Source: Rickettsiales bacterium UBA1997 (GTDB lineage Bacteria > Pseudomonadota > Alphaproteobacteria > Rickettsiales > UBA1997). From it: DNA of 64,000 nucleotides. Every line of letters begins with the position of its first letter. The stretch's first letter is position 1. Below the pieces are notes generated by a model. That model was not told where the DNA came from. It was given only the letters and a program-made list of their open reading frames with translations, and did not search any database. The stretch is from assembly GCA_964202895.1 (NCBI GenBank), contig CAXNJM010000001.1, forward strand, positions 909,675-973,674, in the 5' to 3' direction. This document shows positions 13,675 to 40,050 of this stretch, piece by piece. Made by a program: the position numbers and the translations under genes.

Positions 13675-13738
13675 GGCAATAAGGGGTTGAAACCCCTTGT
13701 CCTTTATGATTGGGAAAATAAATTCACCACAAGGGGGG
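13675..13738 (+). repeat. REP-like dispersed element, copy 1
   Basis: GGCAAT + hairpin AAGGGGTT-GA-AACCCCTT + GT...ATGATTG...TTCACCACAAGGGG; aligns with 37081-37141. Confidence 0.65.
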
Positions 13739-13809
13739 CTGAAGGAGAGGAAATCGAACGTAACTTCAATATAAGGAAAGCTGAGGCACCTTAAAATTAG
13801 TTATTAATT

Positions 13810-14367
13810 TTATTTTACTAAGATATATAAATAAACGCCACACAAATAACCGTCACCAGCAATATCTCCAATAGACTTAAAGCCGAGAGATTGATGAAAA
13901 GCCATAGAAGCCTCATTCTTAATTGGAGAATGCACAATTCTACAAACAATATAATCATAACCCATTTTCTTTACCTCACTAAACATTGAGAGCACTAAAT
14001 TTTTACCAATATTTTTACTATTAGGTTTTTTGGCAATCTGACTATAATAAAAAACTTTATCATCTTCATAATTTAAGCCCTTTGATTCAAATAAAGAAAA
14101 AACTTGTTGCTGAAAATCGACTTCAGTTTTCATAATATCAAAGCCTATTAAATAACCAAAAACCGCCTCCTCTTTTTTTAGAACAACGGCTAAAGATTTT
14201 GATTTATCGTCGATTATATTTTTTAAATCAATCTCACTAAGTTCAGCCACTAAAAACCCCGACTTACCAGCATCGGCATCGAGATTGTTTTTTAACAAGT
14301 TAGCATGATTTATTGCAATAACATCTACAATATCACAATATTCGGCATTAAATATTTCATTAGGCAT
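13810..14367 (-). CDS. GNAT family N-acetyltransferase
   Basis: GYLIGF, QIAKKPNSKNIGKNL (motif A-like), NEASMAFHQSLGF. Confidence 0.85.
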   Translation of the reverse strand: MPNEIFNAEYCDIVDVIAINHANLLKNNLDADAGKSGFLVAELSEIDLKNIIDDKSKSLAVVLKKEEAVFGYLIGFDIMKTEVDFQQQVFSLFESKGLNYEDDKVFYYSQIAKKPNSKNIGKNLVLSMFSEVKKMGYDYIVCRIVHSPIKNEASMAFHQSLGFKSIGDIAGDGYLCGVYLYILVK

Positions 14368-14454
14368 AAATTTATAAATTGGAGTTAAATATCTGCAAAA
14401 TAAAATCTAAAAATACGGAGCATTAGATTAAATGCAAGATTATTATACTCGAAA

Positions 14455-14652
14455 TTTTAACCTAGATAGATATTTGATTTTACTAGCTTCTTGATATTTT
14501 CGTTTATCTTTTGTTTATCTTTTTAACCTAGATAGATATTTGATTTTACTAGCTTCTTGATATTTTCGTTTATCTTTTGTTTATCTTTTTAACCTAGATA
14601 GATATTTGATTTTACTAGCTTCTTGATATTTTCGTTTATCTTTTGTTTATCT
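14455..14652. repeat. Three exact tandem copies of a 66-bp unit
   Basis: Units start at 14455, 14521 and 14587; each contains 11-bp subrepeats, with one extra 11-mer at 14653-14663. Confidence 0.95.
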
Positions 14653-16330
14653 TTTGTTTATCTTTTTCATTAATATTATCATAAAGCCTCCAAATTGGCT
14701 TTGCTCTAGTGCCTTCATTATAGATAGTGCCATCTTTATGCAATTTTATAATAAGTTTAGCAATTTTTCTTATTTTTTGATCTTCGGTTAAAATTTCACT
14801 TAAAGCGCTTTTGAGCAAGTCGTCAATATCTTTACGAGTAGCTTTTTTATATTGAGAAATATAACCAGTAATCAATTTGGTATAATGAACATCGTTTTGG
14901 CGACGATTTCTAACATACTCAGCTTTTTTATCTGCAACTCCAGCTAATATTGCTGAAACATAAAAATTTGGCTTTCTTCCTTCTATCATTTTTTTTCTTT
15001 TAAGACTAGCAATTGCTTCTTTTGATAAATGCAATTTTTTTTGTACACGATCAAGAGCAAAAATGTCATTAAAAGATAGATCGGTTTTTTCCATCAACAT
15101 TTCGCTATATGCAGGATCGATAGCATCTCCGTATACAACCATCTTAACACTGTTGACATTAGATAAATCATAATCGGGAAGCGGAAAATATCTTTTTGCT
15201 TGAGTTTTATTAATATCATAAATTCCGAAACCCATTTTATCTATCATATTTAATGTAAACATAGCCTCTACAAGAAAAACATTTCTATATCTTCGCGGAG
15301 TCTTTTCGTGACAAATATAATCTTCTGGAACACCTTCGAAAAAACTACCCTCATTCTCAAAAATTAATCTATCAAGCCTCTCAATAACATTAATCCTGCC
15401 ATTTCTAGTGTAATCTTAATGAGCTATACAGTTATGCAATGCTTCAAGAACAACTTTTGTATCGTATTTCGATGTTTCGTATGGAATTAATTGATTATGT
15501 GGCAAAAGACGAATTTGAATATTGCGAATTTTTTGATAAATTGCAGTAGTATTAAGTAAAAAAGGTGGACTAAAATGCTCATAAGCTCTTTCCTGACCTT
15601 CAAGTTTCCAAGTAATTTGAGCTGGATGAGGTGAAATTTTAACAGATGATTCTGCTTTTCCTAGCAATAAAATTGCGGTTCTGGTAATTCTTCTATCAAT
15701 AGTTATCTTTGCCCTATCAAGAAAAACTTCCGGACTCCAACTAGTTATTTCCTCTAATGAAAAACGATTGGCATTCTTATGATAAAATAAGTTACGAGCC
15801 TTTTCTATGGCTACCTTATCTAAATCTGTAATTGTTGCATTTTCAACAATTTGTGCCGACCAGTCCGCCAAAGTTTGCTTACGAATTTTATCCAGCTTGT
15901 CTAAATGAAGTGCTGTTAAGCTTTCTCCAGACCTCGAATGATAGTACCCATTCCATGAAATTGGCATCCCTCTAGGTGCAGCAGGAATTTCAAACAAAAT
16001 AACTCGCCCATTATTTTCTGTAAAATATTCGTAAATATTACGAAAAGTAGTATTTGGCTCTGTGCCATTTGAAATGTGAACCTTTATACCCTCCAATATC
16101 TTGCCTTTGTAAAAATCAGTTGTAGTAATTTTACGATTTTTATTATTAACCCCAAAGACTAGCCAAGCTATTTCAACATCTCGTAAGTTTGCTTCATTTG
16201 CCAAGGCAGAAAAATATTTGCCAATTTCTTTGAAAGAATAACCATCATTAACTTCTTTAAATTCCACTACTGCATTTTCCCAAGTAGCTATTAATTTTTC
16301 TAAAAGTGTTTTTAATTTTTCTTTATTCAT
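14636..16330 (-). pseudogene. AlbA_2/Schlafen-like + HATPase_c_4 + wHTH protein with one premature stop
   Basis: VEFKE/ISALANE-like N-terminus (YFSALANEA); in-frame TAA at 15416-15418 in LHNCIAH*DY (homologues as I recall them read AHQDY); the frame continues uninterrupted into ORF 15262-14636. Confidence 0.85.
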
Positions 16331-16360
16331 TGTAAATTTTGCTTTGATATAATTAGTCTA

Positions 16361-16410
16361 CCCACAAGGGGGGAGCTGAACAATGCAACAAAGGAGCTTG
16401 AACCCCTTGC
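16361..16410 (+). repeat. REP-like dispersed element, copy 2 (parts in swapped order)
   Basis: CCACAAGGGGGGAGCTGAA then AAGGAGCTTGAACCCCTTGC. Confidence 0.5.
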
Positions 16411-16649
16411 GAATAAGCCATAAGAAATCATTAACATAAAGAGTTAAAGCTCTTTTTTATTGCGGAATGTAGAAAAATCTAATATCTATTAATTTTACAA
16501 TCATTACCTATAATTCTGCAAGATAATATTTATAGAATTAGATATTGAAAAAAATATTTTACCACCCCCCAAAAATTAAAATTATTGACTCTTCAAACAT
16601 TTATCTAAGTAGTATTTTAAGCTTCTACAGCCGTTAAATTAATCGCCAA

Positions 16650-17933
16650 CTACGATAATATTCTTTTTAAGGATGATGACAGTTTGTTCATATCTTCGTC
16701 GCTAGTTAGTTCGGTAATTGCAATAATCATTTTATTTCCAACTGCTAAGCCTCCAATAATATTTTCTTCTAATAGCTTTTTATTAACTATTTGTGCTTCA
16801 ATATTAAATTCAACCGTAAATTCATTAAAGAAACTACTATTTAAAATTTTTATACCGCTAATATTTTCAAGCATTTCAACCATTTTACAGGCCTTATAAT
16901 GATTAATTAAAGCAAGTTTTTTAAAACCTATTTCTCCTAATAAAGATGAATGAATTGTAAATGCAGTAGCACATAAACCTTGGTTTGAACAAATATTTGA
17001 TGTTGCTTTTTCTCTTCTAATGTGCTGTTCTCTAGCATTTAAAGTTAAAACATAGCCTTCCTTTCCTTCGGCATCAATAGTTTTTCCGCAAATTCTACCC
17101 GGCATTTGTCTAACGAATTCTTTTTTTGATGCAAAAAAACCAAGCAATGGACCACCAAAATTTAACCCCACTCCAATTGAAGAAGCCTCTCCAACCACTA
17201 TATCAGCTTGTGATGGCGGATTAATTAAGCCAAGTGCTAATATTTCGTTAACAACGACGATCATTAAAGCACCGATTTCATCACATTTTTTTCTAACTTC
17301 ATCTAAATCAACTATTTCTCCATAAAAATTAGGATATTGCACCACAATTGCAGAACAAGATTCGTCAGCCCCATTAATATCAACTAATTGAGAATTAGAT
17401 AGCTCTAAATATGTTTTAGTAACCTCAATATAATCTGGATTAATATCTCCAAATAAAACTATTTTTCTTTTTTGATTTTTAATTCTTAATGCCATCAAAC
17501 AAGCTTCTGCCATTGCAGTTGCTCCATCATACATTGAAGCATTGGCAATTTGCATTCCAGTCAACAATGAAATTATACTTTGAAACTGAAAAACAGTAGC
17601 AAGGGTTCCTTGTGATATTTCTGGTTGATATGGAGTATATGAAGTTAAAAATTCTGATCTTTGAATTATGTGGTCAACTGTTGCAGGAATATGATGTCTA
17701 TAGCAACCAACACCAAGGAAAAAGGCACCACTTCCAGCATAACGATTTTTATTCGCAAGGCTTTTTAAATAATTTTCAACCTCGATTTCTCCTAAATGAT
17801 TGGATAAATTTTCAATTGGTTTTTTTAACAAAAATTCTTGCGGAACAGCATCAAATAAATCATTAACACTATTAACTCCGATTTCAGCAAGCATTGCTTT
17901 TCTATCTTGTTCTGTTAAGGCTAGGTATCTCAT
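16650..17933 (-). CDS. gcvPA: Glycine dehydrogenase (aminomethyl-transferring) subunit 1
   Basis: MRYLALT, SYTPYQPEISQG, NASMYDGATA, REQHIRREKATSNICSNQ. Confidence 0.95.
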   Translation of the reverse strand: MRYLALTEQDRKAMLAEIGVNSVNDLFDAVPQEFLLKKPIENLSNHLGEIEVENYLKSLANKNRYAGSGAFFLGVGCYRHHIPATVDHIIQRSEFLTSYTPYQPEISQGTLATVFQFQSIISLLTGMQIANASMYDGATAMAEACLMALRIKNQKRKIVLFGDINPDYIEVTKTYLELSNSQLVDINGADESCSAIVVQYPNFYGEIVDLDEVRKKCDEIGALMIVVVNEILALGLINPPSQADIVVGEASSIGVGLNFGGPLLGFFASKKEFVRQMPGRICGKTIDAEGKEGYVLTLNAREQHIRREKATSNICSNQGLCATAFTIHSSLLGEIGFKKLALINHYKACKMVEMLENISGIKILNSSFFNEFTVEFNIEAQIVNKKLLEENIIGGLAVGNKMIIAITELTSDEDMNKLSSSLKRILS

Positions 17934-17958
17934 AGTTTATAATTATTATTTTAATATT

Positions 17959-18246
17959 TTATTCTATAACTTTAGGAACAGCAAAATAACCAAAAATATT
18001 CTTCTTTGAGTTACTTAAAACTTGCTCTACTATATCTCCATCAGATATTTTATCTTCATTTATTCTTAAATGAATTTCATTGACATTAGTTAATTCTTTA
18101 ACATTATTGGTATCAATTTCATTGAGTTGTTCAACCCATTTTATAATTTCACCAACTTGTTTTGTAAACTGCTTTTGCTCTTCTTCAGTAATTGCAATTT
18201 TTGCTAATTTAGCAATTTTTTTAATATCTTTTTCAGTAATTGACAT
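17959..18246 (-). CDS. gatC: Asp/Glu-tRNA amidotransferase subunit C
   Basis: KKIAKLAKI...EQLNEIDT...FAVPKVIE. Confidence 0.95.
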   Translation of the reverse strand: MSITEKDIKKIAKLAKIAITEEEQKQFTKQVGEIIKWVEQLNEIDTNNVKELTNVNEIHLRINEDKISDGDIVEQVLSNSKKNIFGYFAVPKVIE

Positions 18247-18254
18247 AATAAAAA

Positions 18255-18758
18255 ATGATTATTGAACTTTACAGCAATAATAATCAACAAACTAATAATT
18301 TTGCAAGCGATTATTTAAAAAAAAATCACTTTGGTAAAATAATTTCATTAGATGTTGGTAAAAAAAGAATTGGAATTGCTGTTTGCGATGAAAATCGTTT
18401 AATCTGCACTCCAAAATTAATTATAAATCGTTTCAGCAACCTACAAGATATTGCTTCAATAAAAAATATTATCGATAACGAAAAAATATCTTTTATGATT
18501 GTTGGAATACCATTAAATCATGATAAAAATAATCATGATATTGAAAATGAAATGTCAAATTTTATTAAAAATTTTGTTAAAAAAATTGATGATTATTTTG
18601 AAAATTCATTTATTATATTCTTAATTGATGAAAGTTTTTCTAGTTTTGAAGCAAGAAGAATTATAAAAAACAATAAAAATAAAACAAGAAAATTTTACGA
18701 CGATATATCTGCAAGTATTATATTAGAAGGGTTCATTAGGCAATATCTTAATTTCTAA
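18255..18758 (+). CDS. ruvX: YqgF/RuvX pre-16S rRNA nuclease
   Basis: LDVGKKRIGIA, VGIP, DESFSS, DDISASIIL. Confidence 0.9.
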   Translation: MIIELYSNNNQQTNNFASDYLKKNHFGKIISLDVGKKRIGIAVCDENRLICTPKLIINRFSNLQDIASIKNIIDNEKISFMIVGIPLNHDKNNHDIENEMSNFIKNFVKKIDDYFENSFIIFLIDESFSSFEARRIIKNNKNKTRKFYDDISASIILEGFIRQYLNF

Positions 18759-18989
18759 AGCATGCATTCCTAATAAAAATTCGTCCTTCAAAAGTTTATT
18801 AATATATCGATGAATATTAATTTTATTCATTAAATTAAATTTACTTGCATATAACACAACTTTAAAATGTGTTTCATTTTTACTTTCATCGAAACCAGAA
18901 TGTCCTTTATGTAGATATGAATTATCAATTACATCGAAATATTCTGGATTAATATCTATTTTTATTTTATCGATTATTTTTTGTCTCAT
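18723..18989 (-). CDS. bolA: BolA family protein
   Basis: DNSYLHKGH, ETHFKV, HRYINKLL, HALEI. Confidence 0.9.
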   Translation of the reverse strand: MRQKIIDKIKIDINPEYFDVIDNSYLHKGHSGFDESKNETHFKVVLYASKFNLMNKINIHRYINKLLKDEFLLGMHALEIKILPNEPF

Positions 18990-19264
18990 AAATATTAGAT
19001 GTTATAAAGTTGTTAATAAATAGTTAATAACTATAAAATTATCAACAATTTGATTGAATTCACAAATGTTATTCATTTTAATAACATTTTATTAACATCA
19101 TTATCAACAATGTTAATAAATTTAAAAAAGAATGTTAATAATTTTATAAACCTTATTATTAAAAAACAAAAATCAATAATATAATGTTAATAACTTGTTA
19201 ATATTATTGTTAAAAAGATAATTTATCAACATTTCAACAACTATAAATAATAAATATATAATAA
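18990..19264. other. Probable chromosomal replication origin (oriC)
   Basis: 275-bp extremely AT-rich gap upstream of hemE; eight exact TTATYAACA 9-mers; two TTAA-N7-TTAA (19013, 19187); WATCAA-N4-TTR at 19040; nearby parA/parS; gene-strand switch. Confidence 0.75.
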
Positions 19265-20299
19265 ATGAAAAAATTAATTAATGTATTATTAAATAATAAA
19301 AATTATAAAAATCCACCTATTTGGATAATGAGACAAGCAGGTAGATATTTACCAGAATATCTTGAAATTAGAAAAAAAATTGATAATTTTCTTGATTTAT
19401 GTTATAATCCAAAATTAGCTTCAGAAGTCACACTGCAACCTATTAAAAGATTCAATTTTGATGCTGCAATAATATTTTCAGATATCTTAACCGTAGTTGA
19501 TGCAATTGGCATTAAAGTGGAATTTTTAAAAAATCACGGCCCTAAAATAAGTAATTTTAATCCTGAATTTGATTTATCAAAATTAAAGTTAAATAATATA
19601 AAAAACCATTTACAGCCAGTTTTTGAAGCTATCTCTATAACTAAATCAAAATTATCAAATGACAAAGCTTTAATAGGTTTTTCAGGAGCTCCTTGGACTC
19701 TTGCTTCATATATAATTGAAGGTGGTGGTTCAAAAAATTTTGAGAAAACAAGAAAATTTGCAATTAAAAACCCTTTATTATTTAAAGAATTAATAAATAT
19801 ATTAACAGAATCTATAATCGATTATCTATTACTTCAAATAGAGGCTGGAGTTGATGTTGTAAAAATATTTGATTCTTGGGCTGGTATTTTACCAGAATTT
19901 GAGTTTTTTGAATGGGTTATTAAGCCTAATCAAAAAATTGTTAATGCTATTCAAGAAAAATACCCTAATATCCCAATTATTTGTTTCGCAAGAAATAGCG
20001 GTACTATGTTATTAGATTTTGCTAAAAATGTTAACTGTCAATCACTAGCGATAGATCAAAATTTTTCAAGAAAATGGGTTGTTGATAATATTCAAAATAA
20101 TACCAATAAAGTAGTGCAAGGAAATTTAGATAATTATCTTTTAGCATTTGGTTCTCAAGAAGCTATAAAAAAAGAAGTTGATGATATTTTAGAAAAATTT
20201 AACAAAAAACCATTTATTTTTAATTTAGGTCATGGAATATTGCCAGAAACACCAATTAAAAATGTTGAATTTCTTTTAAAATTAATTAATGGCAATTAA
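19265..20299 (+). CDS. hemE: Uroporphyrinogen decarboxylase
   Basis: PIWIMRQAGRYLPEY, FSDIL, GAPWTLASY, FNLGHGI. Confidence 0.97.
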   Translation: MKKLINVLLNNKNYKNPPIWIMRQAGRYLPEYLEIRKKIDNFLDLCYNPKLASEVTLQPIKRFNFDAAIIFSDILTVVDAIGIKVEFLKNHGPKISNFNPEFDLSKLKLNNIKNHLQPVFEAISITKSKLSNDKALIGFSGAPWTLASYIIEGGGSKNFEKTRKFAIKNPLLFKELINILTESIIDYLLLQIEAGVDVVKIFDSWAGILPEFEFFEWVIKPNQKIVNAIQEKYPNIPIICFARNSGTMLLDFAKNVNCQSLAIDQNFSRKWVVDNIQNNTNKVVQGNLDNYLLAFGSQEAIKKEVDDILEKFNKKPFIFNLGHGILPETPIKNVEFLLKLINGN

Positions 20300-20306
20300 T
20301 TTTAAA

Positions 20307-20322
20307 AGTTTCATGTGAAACA
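20307..20322. promoter_or_regulatory. parS site 1
   Basis: AGTTTCATGTGAAACA vs consensus TGTTTCACGTGAAACA, immediately upstream of parA. Confidence 0.8.
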
Positions 20323-20337
20323 AAATTACTATTTATT

Positions 20338-21126
20338 ATGATATATAATATTCAAAGAGGAAAGACAATTTCAATTGTTAATCAAAAAGGAGGGGTAGGA
20401 AAGAGTACAACTGCGATTAACTTATCAACTGCATTTTCTTTATCGGGAAAAAAGGTTTTATTATTAGATCTTGATCCTCAAGGTAATAGTAGTACTGGAT
20501 TTGGGATCTCGCAGTATCAAAGGCAAAAAACTATTTATGAAGTTTTAATAGGTCAATTAAAAATTAAAGATTCAATAATTCCAACTAAAATACCTAATTT
20601 AAAAATAATAACATCAACCGTTGATTTGTCAGCTGTTGAAATAGAATTAGTTGATTTTGAAAAAAGAGAATTTGTATTAAAAAATTACTTAAAAGAGATA
20701 GTTAATTATTTTGATTATATCTTGATTGATTGTCCTCCTTCTCTTGGTTTATTAACTGTTAATGCTTTAACAGCTTCTGATGCTGTTTTAATACCTATGC
20801 AATGTGAATTTTTTTCATTAGAAGGTTTAAGTCATTTATTGACAAGTCTTGATCTTGTAAAAGATAATCTTAATAAAGATTTAAGAATTAGTGGAATAAT
20901 TTTAACAATGCATGATAAAAGAAACAAACTAACAGAACAAGTTGAATTTGATGTAAGAAATTTTTTAAAGGATAGAGTTTTTAAAAATACAATACCAAGA
21001 AATGTAAAGTTATCAGAAGCTCCATCGCATGGAGTTCCAGGAATTATTTATGATCCGAAGTCTAGTGGTTCTATTGCTTATACTAATCTAGCTAAAGAAA
21101 TACTAGAAAAAGAAATAAAATTTTAA
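20338..21126 (+). CDS. parA: Chromosome partitioning ATPase
   Basis: NQKGGVGKST, DLDPQGN, DCPPSLG, IPRNVKLSEAPSHG. Confidence 0.95.
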   Translation: MIYNIQRGKTISIVNQKGGVGKSTTAINLSTAFSLSGKKVLLLDLDPQGNSSTGFGISQYQRQKTIYEVLIGQLKIKDSIIPTKIPNLKIITSTVDLSAVEIELVDFEKREFVLKNYLKEIVNYFDYILIDCPPSLGLLTVNALTASDAVLIPMQCEFFSLEGLSHLLTSLDLVKDNLNKDLRISGIILTMHDKRNKLTEQVEFDVRNFLKDRVFKNTIPRNVKLSEAPSHGVPGIIYDPKSSGSIAYTNLAKEILEKEIKF

Positions 21127-22482: not shown

Positions 22483-22487
22483 TTAAT

Positions 22488-22503
22488 TGTTTCATGTGAA
22501 ACA
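22488..22503. promoter_or_regulatory. parS site 2
   Basis: TGTTTCATGTGAAACA, one mismatch to consensus. Confidence 0.85.
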
Positions 22504-22524
22504 ATTTGAATATAATTTTAAATC

Positions 22525-24279: not shown

Positions 24280-24294
24280 TTTTGAAAAAGTTTA

Positions 24295-24369
<75 letters not shown>

Positions 24370-24552
24370 ATAGAATATCCAAAACTAAGAATATAATATG
24401 TAATTTACAGAAATCTAAAAGATAAAAAATAAATTGCAATCTAATAATTAAAAAAATATTGTTATTTTCTACAAAATCTTATTTTAAGGAGTGTTTGAAG
24501 TTATTTTAAGCTTAGATTAAGTCGAATTTGTTAATTTTTCTTTTAAGAATTT

Positions 24553-26986: not shown

Positions 26987-27155
26987 TTTTGTGCTGAATC
27001 TATAATCTACTTATCTAGATGGGATTTGTTGTAAGTCTTATTAATCTCCATCCTCCTTAAACTGATTATTTATAGCCATGGAATCAAATTAACAAATAAA
27101 CTGATAAAAAAGACTGGTCAATGCTGATTCTGCGGTTACCTAAAACACTCGTTAT

Positions 27156-27323
27156 GCCGTTGCAAAATGGTACCTATAAAGAGGGGGAGGCTGTGTCCCG
27201 ACTTTCGTCGAGATAACGATGACGGTAAAGGTTGAGATGACGATTGCAGTTGAGCTGGCTTCGCACTCTCCCCTAACCGCAACAAGAAGCTTCAGCCCCT
27301 TGCCTTCTTTCTGGATGACGGAA
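27156..27323 (-). ncRNA. ssrS: Probable 6S RNA
   Basis: GC-rich non-coding island. On the minus strand it folds into a rod (AAAGAAGG-CAA-GGGGCTG pairing with CAGCCTC-C-CCCTCTTT) with a 3' GAAA hairpin followed by ACAGCCT, mirroring the E. coli 6S layout. Ends approximate. Confidence 0.6.
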
Positions 27324-27696
27324 CTAAAAAACTCGCCAAAATTCATAAAAAACTTAAAAAACCTTGCCAAATTAAGCTGTAAAAATAAGATTTTTTGGAC
27401 CTAGTTTTTAATTTAAAAATTCAAAACCAAAAAATCTCTAAAGTTGAAATTTATTGGGTTAAATTTCGATTTTTAGAGGCTCCTTAATGGAATGCATTCG
27501 GCATTTAAAAATTTAGCTGTTAATCGCGAGAGCTTCAAGAAAATTATTCTAGATAAGCAAGTAAATGAAAGATTGAATAGCTTTAATTTTTTAACATTTT
27601 TTAAAATTCGCGATATGTAAAGATAAGCAACAGCAAAAAACTTAGGCTTAAATTCTTTAAGTTCATAGGGTGTTAATAGTCTTGGAATTTATTGTC

Positions 27697-30123: not shown

Positions 30124-30141
30124 TAGCAACTTTATTTTTAA

Positions 30142-31603
<1,462 letters not shown>

Positions 31604-31646
31604 TGCCAATCCCATCTTTAAAGCTAGGATTTGATATAATTAAAAA

Positions 31647-32387: not shown

Positions 32388-32398
32388 TTTTTTAATTT

Positions 32399-32475
32399 TG
32401 GCGTGTTCGGCGGGAATTGAACCCACAACCCTTGCCTTCGGAAAGCAATACTCTATCCAATTGAGCTACGAACAC
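32399..32475 (-). tRNA. tRNA-Arg(CCG)
   Basis: Acceptor GTGTTCG/CGAACAC, anticodon arm TTGCT-TTCCGAA-GGCAA, encoded CCA. Confidence 0.97.
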
Positions 32476-32541
32476 TTATTGATATAGTTCTAAATATAAA
32501 TTTAAGCTTGAGTAATTTAAGTTAAATTGCTGTTTAAATAA

Positions 32542-33534
32542 TTATTTTCTAAAAATTGTATTATATATCAAGCTTTTTATGTATTGAATATCCTGATCTG
32601 CAAATTCGACTTCAATATCTAGGTAATTGATGATTTTTTGGTAAGATGATGGAAATTTTACCCAATCTTTCTTAGTTGTAATTAGTTGGCAGTTTTGTTC
32701 TTCTGCTTTTGTGATTAATTTTTTAAGCTCTTCGTTGTTGTAATAGTAATGATCGGCAAAGTTTATTTTTTCAATTAATGATAAATTTTGCTTAGTCAAA
32801 AAATTAAAAAATTTATCGGGATAGGCCAATCCACAGAATGCAAGATAATTTTTATTATTATCAAATAGCTCTAAATTCTTGCAAATAGTTTTAGCAAAAA
32901 TAATTTTGCCATGATAATTTTTTTTAATTAAATTTAAATTTTCATCGTTAATTTCATTGATTATAATCACTAAATCAGCCATCGCTAACCCCGATTTAAT
33001 ATTTTGACGAAGTGGGCCAGCGGGAATTAGCTTACAATTTCCAAAGGCTACAAAGCCATCAATTACAATTATTTTAATATCTTTAGATAGATTATTATTT
33101 TGTAGCCCGTCATCAAGAATTATTATTTCTGCTTCTTTCATTTGCTCTATTCTTTTAGCTCCAAAAGCTCTGTTCCTAGCGATAAAAGTTTTTGCTACTT
33201 CGTTAAGTAAAATTGCTTCATCACTAACCTTGGTTAATTGCTTCAATGCCTGATTAACGGATAAAAACTCTTGTTTTTCGCCTTTATAGCCCCTAGTAAG
33301 ATAAACGAATTTTTTGTTGATTAAGTTTTCAATAATTTTGCCAATAGCGATTGCTGTTGGTGTTTTGCCTGAACCGCCTGCAATTAAATTGCCAATACAG
33401 ATAACAGTTTTGTTGATTTTTGTTTTTTTAGTAAAAAAACCATCGATTTTTGTTGCTATTAAATAAACCCAACTTAATGGAATTAATATATAGCTAATTA
33501 TGTTGTTGGAAGACCAGAAGCGAGGAGTTTTCAT
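32542..33534 (-). CDS. lpxK: Tetraacyldisaccharide 4'-kinase
   Basis: MKTPRFW, GNLIAGGSGKTP, DDGLQ, PAGPLR, FADHY, TTKKD. Confidence 0.95.
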   Translation of the reverse strand: MKTPRFWSSNNIISYILIPLSWVYLIATKIDGFFTKKTKINKTVICIGNLIAGGSGKTPTAIAIGKIIENLINKKFVYLTRGYKGEKQEFLSVNQALKQLTKVSDEAILLNEVAKTFIARNRAFGAKRIEQMKEAEIIILDDGLQNNNLSKDIKIIVIDGFVAFGNCKLIPAGPLRQNIKSGLAMADLVIIINEINDENLNLIKKNYHGKIIFAKTICKNLELFDNNKNYLAFCGLAYPDKFFNFLTKQNLSLIEKINFADHYYYNNEELKKLITKAEEQNCQLITTKKDWVKFPSSYQKIINYLDIEVEFADQDIQYIKSLIYNTIFRK

Positions 33535-33645
33535 TATAAAATTAATAGTAAATAACAAAATATATTTTCATTTTTAAAATATATTGTCAATAATTGAAAA
33601 TTGGCTTTTATTTATTTGGGCATAATTTAAACCTCTAATCAGAAA

Positions 33646-34266
33646 ATGAAACTAACAATCTACAATATATTTATGTTGGTTAATGCTGTTTGTTGGGCCA
33701 TAACTTATCTTTTAATTATAAAGGCAAATTTTAGTTATAAAAAATGTGTGATGCCAACTTTTTCTCTTGCTACTAACATAAGCTGGGAAGCGATATTTTC
33801 TTTTGTTTATCCTCATCGAGTTCCGCAGATTTATTTTGATTATATTTGGCTTGCTCTAGATATTGTTATTTTTATGCAATTATTATTTTTTAAGCAAACA
33901 AATAAAGTAAATTTATTCTTGCTGTTGTTTTTGAGCTTTATATTCATCATTTTTGGTGTTTATAGTGGCGATAAATGGGGAATATATAGTGCTTTAATAA
34001 CAAATTTAATAATGTCGATTTTATTTATATTAGAGATATTTAAAAACAGGTCTGAGGGTCACTCTTTAGCAATTGGCTTGGCTAAAATGTTAGGAACAGC
34101 AATTGGATGTATCGCTATTATTTTTTATATTCCGCAAATGCAAAACTTATTTACGATAGTAATATTTATAGCCATTTTAATATTTGATTTTATTTATTGT
34201 ATGATGTTGGCTAAGTGTGTTAGAATATCGAATTTTTGCTTTCCACAACTATTTATAAAAAACTAG
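33646..34266 (+). CDS. PaxB/Pyr4-like integral-membrane terpene cyclase homologue
   Basis: CWAITYLLII, MPTFSLATNISWE, WLALD, C-terminal IFDFIY; multiple hydrophobic helices in 206 aa. Confidence 0.7.
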   Translation: MKLTIYNIFMLVNAVCWAITYLLIIKANFSYKKCVMPTFSLATNISWEAIFSFVYPHRVPQIYFDYIWLALDIVIFMQLLFFKQTNKVNLFLLLFLSFIFIIFGVYSGDKWGIYSALITNLIMSILFILEIFKNRSEGHSLAIGLAKMLGTAIGCIAIIFYIPQMQNLFTIVIFIAILIFDFIYCMMLAKCVRISNFCFPQLFIKN

Positions 34267-35364
34267 ATTTACAATATCGTTAATGGTTGTAAAAATCATT
34301 AAGCTAATTAAAATTGCGAAACCAATGCGGAAGGCGATTTCTTGTACCTTTACATTAATTGGTCTACCAATAATTGCCTCTATCAAATAAAACAATAAAT
34401 GCCCGCCATCAAGCATTGGAATTGGCAATAGGTTCATTACCCCAAGATTAATTGATATCATTGCTCCAAACCACAAAACCATCATTATGCCGAGTTCAAT
34501 GGTTTTTCCTGAGTATTGTGCTATTTTTACTGGCCCGCCCAATTCTTTGATTGATCTTTTGCCAATTAATAATTCTTTTAAAGTTTTTAGAATAGTGTTT
34601 GAAATTTGCCAAGTTTCAATATTTGCTTTAGCAAAAGATTGAAAAATATTCAATTCATGATGTTGAATGTCGGTAGCAATGACCCCGATTGTTGGTAATT
34701 TCATTTTTTCTTTAAAGATATTTTCAACTTCAACTAATTCTGGAGTTAAATTAAAATTTAATTTTTGTTCATCTCTAATTGCCGTTATTGATATTTCGCT
34801 AGTTCCTGCTTCAATTATTGCAATTCTTAACTCATCAAAATCGTTAATTTTTTTATTATTGATGCTAATAATTTGATCGCCTTTTTTTAATTCCGCTAGT
34901 TCTGCTGGGCTGTTGGGTTTTATATCGCTAATTTTATTGGCAACAACATTATGCCCGCGAATATTGAAAATAAAGGTTAGAATGATTATTGCTAAGATGA
35001 AATTGGCAATTGGGCCCGCTGAAACAATTGCTATTCTTTGATAAACATTTTTAAAAACAAAGCTTTGTTTTTTTTCTGCCTCCGACATTTTATTAAATGC
35101 TGTAAAATTAGGCTTTGAAGCGGGGTTAGCATCGCCAAACATTTTAACATATCCACCGAAAGGCAACCAGCAAAATTTCCACCTAGTGTTATAGCGATCA
35201 TAAAAGCCAAAAATTTCCTTACCAAAACCGATTGAAAATTCTTCGATCTTAACTTTACAGGCTCTGGCAACAATAAAATGCCCGAATTCGTGAATAAAAA
35301 CAATTGCCGACATAATGATGATGAAGGCAAATAAATTTTGAATTATGATATTGATAATTGACAT
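34249..35364 (-). CDS. rseP: RIP metalloprotease
   Basis: HEFGH, GGYVKM, AGPIANF, PDZ domain, NLLPIPMLDGG. Confidence 0.95.
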   Translation of the reverse strand: MSIINIIIQNLFAFIIIMSAIVFIHEFGHFIVARACKVKIEEFSIGFGKEIFGFYDRYNTRWKFCWLPFGGYVKMFGDANPASKPNFTAFNKMSEAEKKQSFVFKNVYQRIAIVSAGPIANFILAIIILTFIFNIRGHNVVANKISDIKPNSPAELAELKKGDQIISINNKKINDFDELRIAIIEAGTSEISITAIRDEQKLNFNLTPELVEVENIFKEKMKLPTIGVIATDIQHHELNIFQSFAKANIETWQISNTILKTLKELLIGKRSIKELGGPVKIAQYSGKTIELGIMMVLWFGAMISINLGVMNLLPIPMLDGGHLLFYLIEAIIGRPINVKVQEIAFRIGFAILISLMIFTTINDIVNLVFYK

Positions 35365-35367
35365 TTT

Positions 35368-36525
35368 TTAAAATATTGAGTTGGCGATTGTTCTTGCTTG
35401 CTTATCGCAAGCGATTATTTCTTCAATTGTTGATAGCTTGCGATGATTAATTTGGTTGAGGCTTTTTTCAATAATGGTAGTGATTTTATCAAAGGTAATT
35501 TCTTTGTTTAAAAATTTATTAACCGCCACTTCGTTCGCTCCATTTAAAACAACTAAGGCGCTGCCTTCTGTTTCTAGGGCTTGCATGCATAATTTTACAG
35601 CAGGAAACTGCAAATAATCAACTTCAAAAAATTCAAGTTTATTGATTTTTGCTAGGTCAAATTTTTTAATCAATTGATATTGGTATAAATCGAGCCTCTT
35701 AGGAAATTCAAGAGCATAGGAAATTGGGGTTTTCATATCGGGGTAGCTAAGCATTGCAAGGCTAGAGCCATCTTTATATTCCACCATGCCGTGAATAATT
35801 GATTGTGGATGAATTAAGATTTTTAATTGTGATTTTGCAACAGGAAATAGGCGGTAGGCTTCTATCATTTCTAGGCCTTTATTCATCATTGTGGCACAAT
35901 CAATTGATATTTTTGCCCCCATTTGCCAATTAGGATGTTTTAATGCCTCTTCAATTGTGATATTTTCAGGGTCTTTTTGATTGCGAAAAAACGGCCCTCC
36001 AGAGGCGGTAATGGTGATTTTTTCGATGTTGTTAAGGTTGTTTTGTTCGAAGATTTGGAAAATCGCATTATGCTCAGAATCAATTGGCAGTAGGTTTATT
36101 TTTGATTTTTTAACTTCTTCCATAATGATATCGCCAGCAACAACTAAAGATTCCTTATTGGCAATGGCAATGTTAGAGCCTGCTTTAATGGCATTTAAAG
36201 TTGGTAAAACCCCCGCAGAGCCAACAATTGCTGAAAATAAAATATCGCATTTAATTTTTGCAATTTCGTTAATTGATTCCGTTCCCGACATTACCTGACA
36301 ATTATTGATTTGCGATAATGAATCTTTAACAATTTGATAATATTTTTTATTTTCAATTACTACAAATAAAGGCTTTAATATCAAGGCTTGAGAAATTAAT
36401 TCTTGAAAATTTTCTTTTGCTGTTAGGGCGATAATTTGATATTTTTCTAATTCTACCTTGATAATTTCAACAACATTTTTGCCAATTGAACCTGTCGAGC
36501 CTAGAATCGTGATGGTTTTTGCCAT
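35368..36525 (-). CDS. dxr: 1-deoxy-D-xylulose-5-phosphate reductoisomerase
   Basis: LGSTGSIG, ANKESL, DSEHNAIFQ, HPNWQMGAKI, NKGLE. Confidence 0.97.
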   Translation of the reverse strand: MAKTITILGSTGSIGKNVVEIIKVELEKYQIIALTAKENFQELISQALILKPLFVVIENKKYYQIVKDSLSQINNCQVMSGTESINEIAKIKCDILFSAIVGSAGVLPTLNAIKAGSNIAIANKESLVVAGDIIMEEVKKSKINLLPIDSEHNAIFQIFEQNNLNNIEKITITASGGPFFRNQKDPENITIEEALKHPNWQMGAKISIDCATMMNKGLEMIEAYRLFPVAKSQLKILIHPQSIIHGMVEYKDGSSLAMLSYPDMKTPISYALEFPKRLDLYQYQLIKKFDLAKINKLEFFEVDYLQFPAVKLCMQALETEGSALVVLNGANEVAVNKFLNKEITFDKITTIIEKSLNQINHRKLSTIEEIIACDKQARTIANSIF

Positions 36526-36942
36526 TTATTGATTATTTTGATTTTTTGATTTTATTTTATTTGCCTCTTCGGCGATTATTTTTTCAATATTTTGTAGATT
36601 ATCGTGACCTTTATCAATTAAAAATTGAATTTCTGGAACGGTTTTTAATTCAATTTTTTTTGCTAGTTGATGTCTGAAAACAGGAGACATCTGGTTTAAT
36701 TGTTTAATAAGATCTTTTTCAATTTTAGTAAAATAAGCTTCATTATGGTCGGTTTCATTTTTTTGAGTTAAATGAAAAATATCAATGTAAATTTTAGCAT
36801 TTTTTGCATCTGGGCTGACATCTGCCTCGGTGATTGTGATATAACAGTTTTTGGCGGTTGTGATATCGTTTCTTATAAAAATATCGGTCAATATTCTTTT
36901 AATATTCTCGCCTATTTGTAGCTGTCTTTGAGTTTTATTCAT
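36526..36942 (-). CDS. rbfA: Ribosome-binding factor A
   Basis: RQLQIGENI, ITEADVSPDAKNAKIY, VPEIQF. Confidence 0.9.
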   Translation of the reverse strand: MNKTQRQLQIGENIKRILTDIFIRNDITTAKNCYITITEADVSPDAKNAKIYIDIFHLTQKNETDHNEAYFTKIEKDLIKQLNQMSPVFRHQLAKKIELKTVPEIQFLIDKGHDNLQNIEKIIAEEANKIKSKNQNNQ

Positions 36943-37080
36943 AATGAAATTGAAAATGATTTAAATGATTAAATTTAATGATATAATTTTTCATCTGTCA
37001 AGAATTTACCTTAATTATCCCGCATCAATAAAAATCGCTTTGCTATGTTGTTATTTCTTATTTATGGATTTCTTCTTAAC

Positions 37081-37141
37081 GGCAATAGGGGGGATAAAGC
37101 TTCTTGTGTTAATGATTGTAACATAATTTCACCACAAGAGG
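37081..37141 (+). repeat. REP-like dispersed element, copy 3
   Basis: GGCAATAGGGG...CTTGT...ATGATTG...ATAATTTCACCACAAGAGG, collinear with 13675-13738. Confidence 0.65.
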
Positions 37142-37157
37142 TAAAAAACCTGTTGGC

Positions 37158-37178
37158 GAAATGAAGGGAATTATAAAT
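37158..37178 (+). repeat. 21-bp direct repeat, left copy
   Basis: GAAATGAAGGGAATTATAAAT, identical to 39691-39711; overlaps the fic stop codon. Confidence 0.9.
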
Positions 37179-37776
37179 TTTCGGTTATAAATTCGCTGTA
37201 GCCTTCATAATAGTAGCTAATATCAATGCCCTTCATAAATAATTCGCGATCGTTGATTTTATTGGTAAGGGCTTGATGCAAGATCTGTTTTATTTCTATA
37301 TCCTTGATGATGCTTCTTTCCATTGATGAAAGATAATTTTCTTTATCAACTAAATTCCAGTCAATTACCTGTTGCAATTCTTTCTTTAAGATTAGATCGA
37401 GCCATATTCTTGTAGCTCTGCCATTGCCTTCGCAAAAAGGATGAGCAACATTTATTTCAACATATTTTTCGATAATTTTGTCAAAATTATTTTGAGGCAT
37501 TTTGTCAATATAATCAAGGGATTGCGATAAATACATTAACGGAGCAAAGCGGAAGCTTCCTTTAGCGATATTGACATCTCTAATATTGCCAGCAAATTCG
37601 TAAATATCGCTAAATAAATAGGCATGGATTTCTGCCAAACCTTTAAAAGTGCCAATTTCAATTTGATTAATATCGCCACTTTCAAAAAGCTGTTTTGCTT
37701 TTTGTTTGCTAATTTTTTCCTCGGCTTTGTTTAGCTCAATCTGGTTGGTAATATTTAATTTATTTGCTAAGACCAT
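37171..37776 (-). CDS. fic: Class III Fic protein (NmFic-like AMPylase)
   Basis: HPFCEGNGRATR Fic motif; C-terminal inhibitory SYYYEG. Confidence 0.92.
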   Translation of the reverse strand: MVLANKLNITNQIELNKAEEKISKQKAKQLFESGDINQIEIGTFKGLAEIHAYLFSDIYEFAGNIRDVNIAKGSFRFAPLMYLSQSLDYIDKMPQNNFDKIIEKYVEINVAHPFCEGNGRATRIWLDLILKKELQQVIDWNLVDKENYLSSMERSIIKDIEIKQILHQALTNKINDRELFMKGIDISYYYEGYSEFITENL

Positions 37777-37801
37777 ATTATTTATTTATTGCTTTAAGGG
37801 G

Positions 37802-39649
37802 CTATTTTGCTAGAGAATTGACTTTATCTTCTTGAAAAGGATCTCTGCTTAAATAATCTTTATAATCTTGTTTTTCAATATATTTCTGCTTTATTAGCTC
37901 TTTGGAAACATCGGAAATGTTAATTTTCGCAAATTTTTTCGCGGTTGCTTTTGAAAGTGTGTCTTTAAAAAATTCTCCAAGCTTTTTTGTTAATTTCTCT
38001 TGTATTTCAATAAGCGCTTCAGAGCAAGCTTTTTGTGATTTGGGAGCAATCTTTTTCAATCTCAATTCAAAGTCGCTTGATAAAAACTTGTTAGATTTTT
38101 CTATTAATTCTTCAGAAGCATCGTAAATCGAGATTTGCATAAGTTTTTTTGTGATTGCCTCTGAAAAAGCATCTTTAAAAAATGCTCTAAGTTCTATTTT
38201 TAATTCATCTTCTATTCTAGAAAATGCATCATAAAAATCTTCTTTGCCTAGATCCCAGCCACCAATAAAAATAACTCTATTAATGATTTCCTCGAGGAGA
38301 TCGGCAAAATCAGTATTGAAAACAGTATTGCAAAAAGCAATATCATCATCTGTTAATATATTTTCAAGCAATTGCCAAACAGCTCCTTTGGCATTATTGA
38401 GTGCATTATATTCTTGTGGGTCAAAAATGCTGAAAATAGTCATTGCGAGCAATTTGGCACGGGCTTTATTAGCATCAATTTTATCGCCAAATTTAAGTCT
38501 TTTAATAAATCTATATTGCTCGCAAATATTGTTACCAATTCTTTTGTCAACTACTGCATTCTTGCAAAGAATTTCTAGCACTTTTTCTAGTTCATCTTTT
38601 TCTGCTGAATTGATTGTTTTTTCTTTGGTGATGAGCTCTAGCATTTCTTCTTTGGCGGTATGATTATTGCTAAATTTTAACACAGGAATGATAACATCAA
38701 AAAATTTGCAAATATCATTTACTGATTTTTGTGGATCCTTGTCTTGATTGTCTGGTTTTGAGTAATTAGCTGGTGCAAAAAGCCCTGAATTCAAGGCATA
38801 AAGAAAGGGTAGTGTTTTATTTTTTAATCGATAATTAATTATTAGAGAAATTTCTCGCAAAGCAGTGAATATTTCAATTTCATTGAAGCGGTCAAGGTCT
38901 TCCACTATTACAACATAATCTTTTTTGGCAATTTCCTCTAAAATAAAAATAATTTGTGCAAGATGTCTATAAAAAGGATTTTTTGATATTTCTAAATCGA
39001 CATTTGGGGCTTTAAGGTTGATTTTACTAAAACCAAGGTTTTTTAAAAAAATAAAAAAATTGATTAATTGCCAAAATATTAGCAAAAAACAACCAAGCAA
39101 GACTATATAAAAACTAATTTTAGTATAGTTACCAAGTAAGACTATATCAAGATTAATTTTATTAAAAGCAATAAAGGCAAAAACAAGCGAAAATAAAAAT
39201 GCAGAAAACCCTTGCAGTATCTTGCTGGGTTTATATACAGACTGTAAAATAGAATTAGGAACAGCAACTTTTGCTTGCCAAAACAACAATTCAAGGATCT
39301 TCTCTTTTATTGTGTTTGTTTCGTTTTCTGTGTTTGTTTTATCTGGATTTAATTCAATTTTAGCCAGCGAAAGGCGAATGACCTTTTGCTTATCATTATC
39401 GTCAAGAAAATTTTCAATGATTGTGCTTTTACCTGAAGCATAATCGCCAATTAAGCCAATATTATAGATTTTAGGGTCCGATAAAGCCTTTTTAATGTAG
39501 TCTACATAATGCTGGTTTGGGCTATTGATACTGCCCTCGGTGTTTGGACCTAATCGAAGAATTTCTGGAAGAGTATCTGGGGTTTTAGTGTTGGAACCTT
39601 TGCCAGAGCAAAAAAAGCTTGATATTTTAGTGATAAATAATTTAGTCAA
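37802..39649 (-). CDS. YobI/KAP-like P-loop NTPase with two TM helices
   Basis: Walker A GDYASGKST, two hydrophobic segments, Walker B VIVEDLDRF, KFFDVIIP. Confidence 0.8.
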   Translation of the reverse strand: MTKLFITKISSFFCSGKGSNTKTPDTLPEILRLGPNTEGSINSPNQHYVDYIKKALSDPKIYNIGLIGDYASGKSTIIENFLDDNDKQKVIRLSLAKIELNPDKTNTENETNTIKEKILELLFWQAKVAVPNSILQSVYKPSKILQGFSAFLFSLVFAFIAFNKINLDIVLLGNYTKISFYIVLLGCFLLIFWQLINFFIFLKNLGFSKINLKAPNVDLEISKNPFYRHLAQIIFILEEIAKKDYVVIVEDLDRFNEIEIFTALREISLIINYRLKNKTLPFLYALNSGLFAPANYSKPDNQDKDPQKSVNDICKFFDVIIPVLKFSNNHTAKEEMLELITKEKTINSAEKDELEKVLEILCKNAVVDKRIGNNICEQYRFIKRLKFGDKIDANKARAKLLAMTIFSIFDPQEYNALNNAKGAVWQLLENILTDDDIAFCNTVFNTDFADLLEEIINRVIFIGGWDLGKEDFYDAFSRIEDELKIELRAFFKDAFSEAITKKLMQISIYDASEELIEKSNKFLSSDFELRLKKIAPKSQKACSEALIEIQEKLTKKLGEFFKDTLSKATAKKFAKINISDVSKELIKQKYIEKQDYKDYLSRDPFQEDKVNSLAK

Positions 39650-39690
39650 TTTTATTAATAATAAATTAAAGGGTTTCTCCGCTTGTTGCT

Positions 39691-39711
39691 GAAATGAAGG
39701 GAATTATAAAT
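39691..39711 (+). repeat. 21-bp direct repeat, right copy
   Basis: Identical to 37158-37178. Confidence 0.9.
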
Positions 39712-40050
39712 CGACCTTATTCTATTTATTTCCCCCGAGTTTCCTCTGAGTTTTTTATGAGTTTCCTTTGGGTTTTTTTTGAAAAAGATCTTCGGCTAAT
39801 TTTAGATCTAAATATTGCATTTGCAATAGATAGGTTGACTATTATTTATGATATTTATAAGTTTTCTCCTAATCGCAAGAAGGGGCTAAAGCCTACAGAA
39901 TAAAGCGGTGAAGATATATTCGGAAAGCTCATCGTAAATACACTTCTTTCTGGGAGTTGATTTAATAATTCTAAATGGGCTCTTTACATTATAATTCTTA
40001 ATTACTATATTGCCTTGAGATTATAATAATATTTTAATATCATTTTGATT

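Follow-up and report, generated by a model that had tools for sequence, protein, structure and literature searches.

A repeat found at the two strain-variable gene cassettes of a 64,000-nucleotide (nt) stretch of the Rickettsiales bacterium UBA1997 genome (denoted the window; contig C1, positions 909675-973674) belongs to a family of repetitive extragenic palindromic (REP) sequences of the REP/REPIN type. The family is genus-specific, extragenic and biased towards the 3' ends of genes, and it resembles bacterial interspersed mosaic elements (BIMEs). Judged by their sequence, the two long copies in the window, A and B, are old, ordinary, decayed members of this family and not a special pair. 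REP-bearing intergenic regions are where the genus gains, loses and rearranges DNA, a correlation that extends well beyond the two cassettes. We consider it likely that the copies were spread by a Y1 domain nested in a restriction-methylase gene just outside the window, and that the dispersed REPs act as recombination substrates and landing zones, not as dedicated attachment sites. The source genome (G000) comprises 1.42 Mb in 6 contigs at 31% GC, and its Dxr protein is 91% identical to the nearest record, from a metagenome-assembled genome of an uncultured Rickettsiales lineage; G001, G002 and G003 denote the other genomes of the genus and L-numbers the compared loci or contigs.

The unit hairpin has the form CAAGGGG-YTKMAR-CCCCTTG with outer arms GGCAA and TTGCC (spelled out, GGCAACAAGGGGCTTCAGCCCCTTGTTGCC). 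Its foot reads GGCAA/CAAGGGG...CCCCTTG/TTGCC, with neither GTAG nor CGTC adjacent. Alignment of the best genomic matches yielded a doublet of ~80 nt composed, in that order, of GGCAACAAGGGGYTTCARCCCCTTG, GCTTAATGATAACGGAATGCAACTTCACCA and CAAGGGGCTGAAGCCCCTTGTTGCC. By blastn and pattern searches of G000, the unit was found on both strands as lone hairpins, inverted doublets with a 30-nt spacer, 33-nt tandem arrays and mosaics, with + and - copies about equal in number. Approximately 14 inverted doublets could be aligned; when folded, the doublet consensus forms one stem of 25 bp (-31.8 kcal/mol; z = -9.9). A first-pass annotation of the window had listed four copies; genome-wide searches with blastn, patterns and nhmmer showed many more, and 67 hairpins, 22 of them perfect, were counted at up to three mismatches, in ~30 clusters. 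Although the genome is ~90% coding by an open reading frame (ORF) proxy, 57 of the 67 hairpins (85%; p = 1e-46) and 27 of the 30 clusters are intergenic. The REP-bearing intergenic regions are convergent in 8 cases, tandem in 19 and divergent in 1, compared with 88, 465 and 132 for all intergenic regions, which indicates that 3' ends are favoured and promoter-only regions avoided.

Searched for as an exact pattern, the hairpin turned up in each of the genus's four genomes (20, 8, 16 and 10 sites) and in none of 27 other genera belonging to the same family and order; a control pattern gave no match in the 31 genomes. The hairpin family is therefore restricted to one genus of freshwater/environmental Rickettsiales. 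Orthologous copies shared among the congeners lie downstream of gcvP and of tyrS. Around the hairpins we found other short modules, each with its own copy number: an AT-rich module of ~190 nt, GTTTTAGTTCCGTCATCCAGAAAGAAGGCAA, GTCATCCCGACGAAAGTCGGGACCCAG and GAAGGRAGAGAAATCGA. Head-to-tail arrays of 3-7 near-identical REP hairpins with a period of 32-36 nt occur at C1:429856-430075, 732180-732270, 1159437-1159646 and 233093-233185; having no unique spacers, they are not CRISPR-like (CRISPR, clustered regularly interspaced short palindromic repeats). An Rfam scan of the window returned three tRNAs only.

The members of the family in the window, together with the stretches adjoining them, are as follows (DR1 and DR2 are direct repeats described below).

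13675-13745, + strand: REP doublet copy A, consisting of GGCAATA, the intact hairpin 1 AAGGGGTTGAAACCCCTT, a 30-nt spacer and the cut-off hairpin 2 CCACAAGGGGGGCTGAAGG.
13741-13776, + strand: mosaic module GAAGGAGAGGAAATCGAACGTAACTT... adjoining copy A; the same module follows REPs at C1:1159445, C2:109284 and C1:732096.
16361-16412, + strand: REP relic copy C, consisting of the right copy of DR1 CCACAAGGGGGGAGCTGAA and a degraded full hairpin GCAACAAAGGAGCTTGAACCCCTTGCG, at the right boundary of cassette 1.
27130-27487, - strand: mosaic repeat element overlooked in the first-pass annotation, with an AT-rich module of ~190 nt, a REP hairpin at 27279-27303 (GCAACAAGAAGCTTCAGCCCCTTGC) and more GC-rich hairpin modules.
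37081-37151, + strand: REP doublet copy B, both hairpins degraded, directly 3' of the stop codon of the Fic gene.
39666-39711, + strand: degenerate REP hairpin AAAGGGTTTCTCCGCTTGTTGC joined to the right-hand DR2 copy (39684-39711); the YobI-type NTPase start codon lies 20-60 nt downstream.
39874-39893, + strand: CGCAAGAAGGGGCTAAAGCC, the fourth copy of the first-pass annotation, at best a truncated half-hairpin.

To score these copies we used an nhmmer profile built from 7 canonical copies elsewhere in the genome, with A and B left out. Both matched, at E = 4.8e-9 for A (window 13675-13742, equal to C1:923349-923416) and E = 2.3e-5 for B (window 37082-37151), and their alignment agrees with the earlier description of 13675-13738 and 37081-37141 as collinear. 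Hairpin 1 of copy A is not a local sequence; it recurs throughout G000. Over the core, A shows 75-83% identity to other doublets, and B reaches 74% with A and 67-69% with the remaining ones. The fold z-scores of A (-0.9) and B (-0.6) are no better than those of shuffled sequences, and only hairpin 1 of A folds. We also considered a cassette-tied A-B subfamily and ruled it out, A being like ordinary doublets and B only marginally closer to A.

Copy C, annotated earlier as a partial copy at 16361-16410, is weak on its own (nhmmer E ~0.7, 16385-16409), but it is a genuine relic nonetheless, as the orthologues of its right half are an intact REP of G003 (GGCAACAAGGGGCTTCAGCCCCTTGCGG; L091 11954-11981) and a degraded REP of L145. 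On this comparison, the gcvP-proximal hairpin of copy C is an old orthologous REP. At 39880-39893, the 14-mer taken for the fourth copy, the profile gave no match and no stable fold was obtained; with up to one mismatch this 14-mer is expected 0.01 times per window, and it is possibly a relic that has been truncated. Its place as the right edge of cassette 2 is taken by the copy at 39666-39711. The four copies first listed do share the + orientation, but the hairpin at 27279-27303 is on the - strand, and both orientations occur genome-wide. This overlooked mosaic (nhmmer E = 6.9e-4, 27279-27325) is 88% identical over 196 nt to a G000-specific mosaic at C1:1159185-1159715. It sits in core DNA, from which copies had been reported absent, with a DEAD-box helicase gene on one side and, on the other, a hypothetical gene that neighbours a radical-SAM (UPF0004) gene. 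Synteny with L001 stops nearby, at 27597.

The candidate enzyme of the family is encoded just outside the window.

C1:976836-980747, ~3-7 kb beyond the window's right end: ORF of 1303 codons for an MmeI/Eco57I-like type IIG restriction-methylase with a nested Y1 domain.

The sole Pfam Y1_Tnp (PF01797) match in G000 lies at C1:978765-979040 (48 bits, above the cut-off), inside a Y1 domain spanning C1:978621-979160, ~5 kb beyond the window's right end. Within the ORF the order is DPACGSGAFL ... EFKEVF, Y1 domain, three REP hairpins and GFDVVVGNPPY. The three REPs lie within 200 nt 3' of the Y1 domain and are translated in frame as GNKGLQPLA, GNKGLQPLA and PQGAEAPCC. The domain contains DHVH as its HUH motif and YVVNNRYKH as its Tyr motif. 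The best NCBIfam model is REP_Tyr_transpos (NF047646), whose 50.1 bits exceed the 40 bits of IS200 and compare with a cut-off of 80 bits for curated REP-associated tyrosine transposases (RAYTs); PDB matches are to IS200-type transposases. The position of this sole Y1 domain, with three REPs directly 3' of it, supports the first-pass proposal of a REP-like hairpin in a non-autonomous element whose HUH/Y1 (RAYT-type) enzyme is encoded elsewhere.

Using the Y1 region as query against long proteins only, we obtained 118 proteins of ~1200-1300 amino acids (aa) from Bacteroidota, Marinimicrobia and others with the same Pfam architecture, N6_Mtase, Eco57I, TaqI_C and MmeI_Mtase plus Y1_Tnp. The motifs THNSRxSxR, NICxDHxH and YxxxNRxKH are invariant in 17 aligned fusion proteins. 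The MmeI-like/Y1 fusion is thus a conserved architecture, and the fusions share the insertion point of the Y1 region, which lies after an EFPxxF segment and before the GFDVVxGNPPY motif. That a free RAYT gene had newly inserted into the methylase gene was ruled out by these 118 proteins with the same architecture and site. Relatedness to other Y1 genes of the same bacterial family was likewise rejected, the identity being only ~27-29% and the lineages unrelated. Free-standing homologues are rare; the two found (39-43% identity) both carry CAAGGG-type hairpins.

The link between hairpin and enzyme comes from unrelated fusion genes. In three of three such genes examined as DNA, CAAGGG-N8-CCCTTG palindromes occur in frame in or beside the Y1 region, and in the 4-Mb genome G053 three of the four genome-wide matches to this pattern lie inside the fusion gene. 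Hairpin-derived peptides are present in the Y1 region of 40 of 88 full-length fusions, at 4.5 times the density of the rest of the protein. The presence of the same hairpin inside unrelated fusion genes points to the dispersed G000 hairpin being cognate to this Y1 clade, and the nested Y1 domain is likely the cognate enzyme of the REPs. In the G002 orthologue the Y1 domain has been deleted, with only SINLYQ and two in-frame REPs left at the site; a G002 paralogue shows the empty site EFGFKFDVIVGNPPY, and the G003 gene is chimeric after residue 464. A search of the literature returned no description of a Y1/RAYT fusion to a restriction-methylase. On an unrelated metagenome contig (L123 3279-11630), a whole unit consisting of RelB, YoeB and a Y1-containing MmeI-like enzyme is present as a tandem duplicate, with REP-like hairpins on both sides of Y1.

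Next we examined what surrounds the REPs. In a Pfam analysis of the genes flanking 20 other REP clusters in G000, a housekeeping neighbour was found at all 20, including DnaK, HolC, TyrS, PrfA, IspDF, GuaA, PdxJ, PrmC and TypA, and further HemB, the second GcvP subunit, UppP/BacA, PanC, CarB, TrpD, VirB4 and others. Accessory-type neighbours (XRE regulator, Dam methylase, GNAT, Fic, type ISP restriction enzyme, nucleotidyltransferase-substrate-binding protein) were present at only 6 or 7. Copies are thus largely spread through core intergenic regions, and the idea that the repeat is specific to cassettes does not hold.

We located ten core anchors beside REP clusters in G001-G003 with a chimeric DNA query and compared the regions. 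Recent mobility is indicated between pdxJ and prmC, where G000 alone has a mosaic of 530 nt that includes a REP array and is flanked by TTTAG, and G001 and G003 have clean empty sites. Empty loci in relatives, which the first-pass annotation had proposed to compare, were thus recovered at this place, but it is the sole clean one obtained, the other sites being replaced and not interrupted. The pabB doublet is shared by G000 and G003 and lies in an 860-nt segment absent from G001. Downstream of queH, guaA and hemB the relatives have 2.5-4.3 kb of different DNA. In G003 we identified the junctions uppP-trpD, prfA-second gcvP subunit gene, typA-C2:14051 and tyrS-C1:417392, each of which keeps a REP; in G000, REP clusters lie at each of the two partner loci of uppP-trpD and of prfA-gcvP, and for typA and tyrS on the anchor side only, with no REP flagged in the partner regions.

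All G000 intergenic regions that could be assessed across the G001 and G003 loci were scored as broken or conserved: the REP-bearing regions were 15 broken and 0 conserved and the REP-free regions 9 broken and 19 conserved (Fisher p = 1e-5). There is some circularity in this score, in that a region also counts as broken when a REP alone has been gained or lost (gene-scale changes account for 11 of the 15), and the loci had been selected for holding REPs, the sole control being REP-free regions on the same loci. Of the broken REP-free regions, several hold degenerate modules or form the partner ends of REP-associated events. In the relatives, many contigs stop at a REP cluster, as is expected of repeats. 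REPs mark most of the sites at which the related genomes differ, beyond the two cassettes, and coincide with essentially all gene-scale differences between congeners that could be compared.

The two cassettes and the direct repeats within them are the following.

12827-16382, - strand: cassette 1, a strain-specific segment of 3.56 kb between the malic-enzyme gene and gcvP, with a 120-aa ORF, copy A, a weak GNAT-like gene, a 208-aa ORF and a Schlafen AlbA_2 protein gene.
13727-13743, + strand: left copy of DR1, CCACAAGGGGGGCTGAA, which brackets the GNAT-like, hypothetical and Schlafen-AlbA_2 genes.
37022-39649, - strand: cassette 2, at rbfA, encoding a Fic protein and a YobI-like P-loop NTPase (Pfam).
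37151-37178, + strand: left copy of DR2, TGTTGGCGAAATGAAGGGAATTATAAAT, which begins with the REP-terminal TGTTGC and overlaps the Fic stop codon.

Neither G003 (L091) nor L145, a metagenome strain of 96% identity, has cassette 1. The malic enzyme-gcvP spacer of G003 contains a REP doublet, its second hairpin broken by a small element, followed by one intact REP; L145 has only a degraded single REP adjoining gcvP, and a third allele, L218 (97% identity), carries two GNAT genes. The right boundary of the cassette abuts the orthologous gcvP-proximal REP. Copy A, described earlier as lying at a cassette boundary, is ~850 nt inside the strain-specific segment and not at an edge. The 12-mer CCACAAGGGGGG (extended as CCACAAGGGGGG(A)GCTGAA) has only two sites in the 1.42-Mb genome, 13727 and 16362, at the ends of the three-gene block.

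Cassette 2 also varies among relatives. L001, which is G003-like (86-91% nucleotide identity), has the NTPase beside rbfA without Fic and copy B; window 37022-37775 corresponds there to 89 nt with a mini-hairpin, and unrelated genes lie upstream of the NTPase. Homology around copy B ends at 37021 (L001/G003) and at 37041 (G001), copy B being present in neither. G001, the closest relative (94-98% identity), carries AbiEi/AbiEii-like genes at the rbfA site, assigned by eye. DR2 is a 28-nt direct repeat (37151-37178 and 39684-39711, 26 of 28 identical) that brackets Fic and the NTPase; it begins at the REP terminus TGTTGC and runs into a family module, and its right copy is preceded by the degenerate hairpin. 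Both cassettes had been called defence-like. Only cassette 2 has matches to defence-candidate models: PADLOC assigned Fic to the candidate defence family PDC-S04 (E = 9e-102) and the NTPase gave a weak Tmn match. The genes of cassette 1 had no PADLOC match. With 3-4 different alleles at each site among close relatives, both are multi-allele hotspots. No recombinase domain was found in either cassette, and no common junction core among the G001, L145 and L218 alleles.

The REP copies would have been spread by the genome's sole HUH/Y1 (RAYT-like) domain, a step that we infer by association. TnpA of IS200/IS608 and TnpA-REP of E. coli provide the analogy: the folded hairpin, on DNA left single-stranded at the replication fork, would be bound and nicked by this domain, and copies would be pasted elsewhere. 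In this sense we infer that the nested domain mobilises REPs. Dispersed REPs and mosaics would then provide recombination substrates and tolerated landing zones, and the cassettes would be swapped between strains without REPs serving as their dedicated attachment sites; dispersed REPs would thereby promote recombination and may contribute to cassette turnover. Several results weigh against this account. The nearest-neighbour identity of the doublets is 73-92%, with no pair above 92% and no cloud of near-identical copies, and there is thus no sign of a recent burst. The Y1 domain falls short of the curated RAYT cut-off, none of the REPs is on its 5' side, and no Y1 domain was found in G001-G003, of which G001 is only 79% complete, although these genomes keep their REPs. 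At the cassettes, it is the malic-enzyme stop codon, and no REP, that forms the left edge of cassette 1, and the G001 allele at the rbfA site has no REP at the junction. The circularity and locus selection behind the score of broken regions count on the same side.

The alternative that survives best is that REPs are passive passengers: cassettes are exchanged by homologous recombination in flanking core genes, and REPs survive in permissive intergenic DNA or arrive with the allele. We hold this to be plausible, though the less probable account. It fits the exact coincidence of the left edge of cassette 1 with a stop codon, where the whole intergenic region is replaced and not interrupted, the REP-free G001 allele at the rbfA hotspot, and the REP-free indel of a Pyr4-like gene at 33543-34258. 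It is strong for both cassettes because A and B, although old and decayed, lie in segments that 96-98% identical strains lack, and were probably imported with the allele. Three observations speak against it. The direct repeats are locus-specific, CCACAAGGGGGG occurring only at the two ends of the three-gene block and DR2 being 26/28 identical; the G003 uppP-trpD and prfA-gcvP junctions each join two loci that have a REP in G000, with one REP kept; and REP-bearing regions were broken in 15 of 15 cases, as opposed to 9 of the 28 REP-free ones. A minority reading, for which the locus-specific direct repeats leave room, is that REPs mediated a step of integration or duplication at the cassettes. 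The suggestion that REPs seed cargo-gene hotspots fares accordingly: REP regions do coincide with indels and rearrangements, and both cassettes are bracketed by REP direct repeats, but seeding is not supported, given the G001 rbfA allele. A stronger form of our favoured account, in which the Y1 domain is catalytically active in trans, the hairpin has escaped from the gene, and hairpins are the joints at which strain-specific cassettes including Fic/NTPase integrate, excise and shuffle, appears rather unlikely to us. If it were true, a restriction enzyme would carry the engine that builds its genome's own recombination hotspots.

Dedicated attachment, in which the REP hairpin is the site of cargo integration and excision by the Y1 enzyme (REP-bounded cargo transposition), is the stronger reading of the first-pass annotation and is improbable. 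Both cassettes are bracketed by same-orientation REP direct repeats that are each other's closest relatives in the genome, and IS200/IS605 transposases need only left and right hairpin ends. However, the bracketing copies are degraded and no longer fold, accessory-type neighbours are found at only 6 or 7 of the 20 other clusters, every one of which has a housekeeping neighbour, and Y1 transposition leaves no target duplication, so that direct repeats are not its expected signature.

More improbable still is that the hairpins are host-selected, kept as transcription terminators or mRNA 3'-end stabilisers and not through mobility. Such a role would be consistent with the strong 3'-end bias, with the near absence of REPs from divergent promoter regions, and with the location of A and B directly downstream of a stop codon on the coding strand. 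Yet the hairpin is not followed by a T-run, the sequence continuing as CCCCTTGTTGCC, with GTTGCC after the hairpin, copies are gained and lost between near-identical strains, and tandem arrays, in-frame copies in a gene and mosaic structure fit selfish spread. A regulatory role can at most be secondary, as it is for the REPs of E. coli. Finally, a chance resemblance of two AT-rich intergenic stretches, to which the presence of only two long copies in the window and the modest A-B identity might point, is a negligible prospect given the E-values from a profile excluding both, the dozens of further copies and the control pattern without a match.

REP/REPIN-RAYT systems are well known in gamma- and betaproteobacteria, and we regard the present family as a known kind of element in an unusual enzyme context. 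With YafM of E. coli and the REPINs of Pseudomonas fluorescens it shares a short GC-rich palindrome, inverted doublets folding into one hairpin, tens of mostly extragenic copies, lineage restriction with vertical inheritance, a single-copy Y1/HUH gene beside REPs, and relatives that keep REPs after loss of the enzyme (PMC3116915, PMC3337134, PMC3479197, PMC5581495). It differs from the described superfamilies by having no GTAG or CGTC foot (PMC3733652). Further differences are that the enzyme here is a domain in a restriction-methylase, with REPs only 3' of the domain and translated, that there is no cloud of identical master copies, and that the host belongs to the Rickettsiales and has a genome of 1.4 Mb. 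Rickettsiales are reported to have few tnpA-Y1 genes or none (PMC6006769). Quentin et al. (2018) described in-frame REPs inside subclass 2.4 tnpA-REP genes and REP-bearing genomes without the gene; a methylase fusion is unmentioned there, and unexpectedly long proteins were discarded (PMC6006769). Compared by motifs only, RAYT subclass 2.4/group 4 resembles the present domain in its in-frame REPs between or after the HUH and Tyr motifs and in a YIxNN-type Tyr motif, but its members have NH[IFV]H and YIxNNP and are free-standing proteins of ~194 aa, whereas here DHVH and YxxNNRxKH are nested in an MmeI-like enzyme (PMC6006769).

The other Y1-in-MmeI/Eco57I-like fusions share the insertion point, conserved catalytic residues and in-frame cognate hairpins. 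In G053 the hairpin is confined to the gene, whereas in this genus it forms a genome-wide intergenic population. As in enterobacterial BIMEs, REP units occur together with several further short conserved modules, whose order varies, and in tandem arrays, although the module sequences are unrelated. Likened by description only, Rickettsia palindromic elements are also palindromic repeats of Rickettsiales able to sit in frame in genes (PMC1779305); at 100-150 bp, they are frequently found within many different genes, and no enzyme is known for them, whereas here only one gene has in-frame copies and there is a candidate enzyme.

These findings add a REP/REPIN-type system in a small (1.4-Mb) environmental Rickettsiales genome and give the nested RAYT-in-type IIG architecture a natural read-out: a hairpin that elsewhere is gene-confined populates ~30 intergenic sites here, and the only genome of the genus with the Y1 domain, G000, also has a lineage-specific new insertion. 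Any activity of the nested domain as a REP transposase becomes directly testable with defined substrates. In metagenome-assembled genomes of this genus, the REPs can serve in practice to mark variable sites and assembly breaks, and they are candidates for driving rearrangement in a reduced genome.

Several minor observations concern the same loci. Within the window, the cumulative GC skew has its minimum at 18-19 kb, beside hemE and ruvX, which would fit a replication origin within the window; an orientation bias relative to an origin near window 19,000 was considered and was not apparent among 16 oriented doublets. In cassette 1, a perfect 69-nt direct repeat (14455-14523 and 14587-14655, 132 nt apart) overlaps the 3' end of the 208-aa ORF. 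Left of copy A, a promoter-like stretch AATCAAGTTTTTTGATATAATTTTGGCAATAAGGGG (13578-13697) is 83% identical to C1:867822-867938, a REP junction upstream of a 522-aa ORF, and TTTGATATAATT recurs beside copy C (window 16344-16356); AATCAAGTTTTTTGATATAATTTTGGCAATAAGGGG is either a REP-adjacent module or a duplicated promoter. The 120-aa ORF was rejected as a paralogue of the 522-aa ORF (C1:866234), as the upstream region and REP junction are alike and there is no protein similarity. Some insertion sequence elements target REPs in Pseudomonas and enterobacteria. At three G003-type loci (L091 11838-11950, L139 1045-1230 and L001 18950-19070), an element of ~115-190 nt with inverted ends CACAACCTGTCTAAAGTTCC... 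lies inside the loop or arm of REP hairpins, and its position suggests that this small element targets REPs. Elsewhere in the window, the Pyr4-like membrane terpene-cyclase gene (33543-34258) shows a clean presence/absence difference of 715 nt, G001 having 18 nt instead and L001 (G003-type) having the gene, with no REP at the edges. Upstream of rbfA in G001, L093 7757-9161 contains two + strand ORFs, the second of which has an AbiEii-like nucleotidyltransferase motif KGGNLMAIAHQSQRTTGDVDFS, recognised by eye only.

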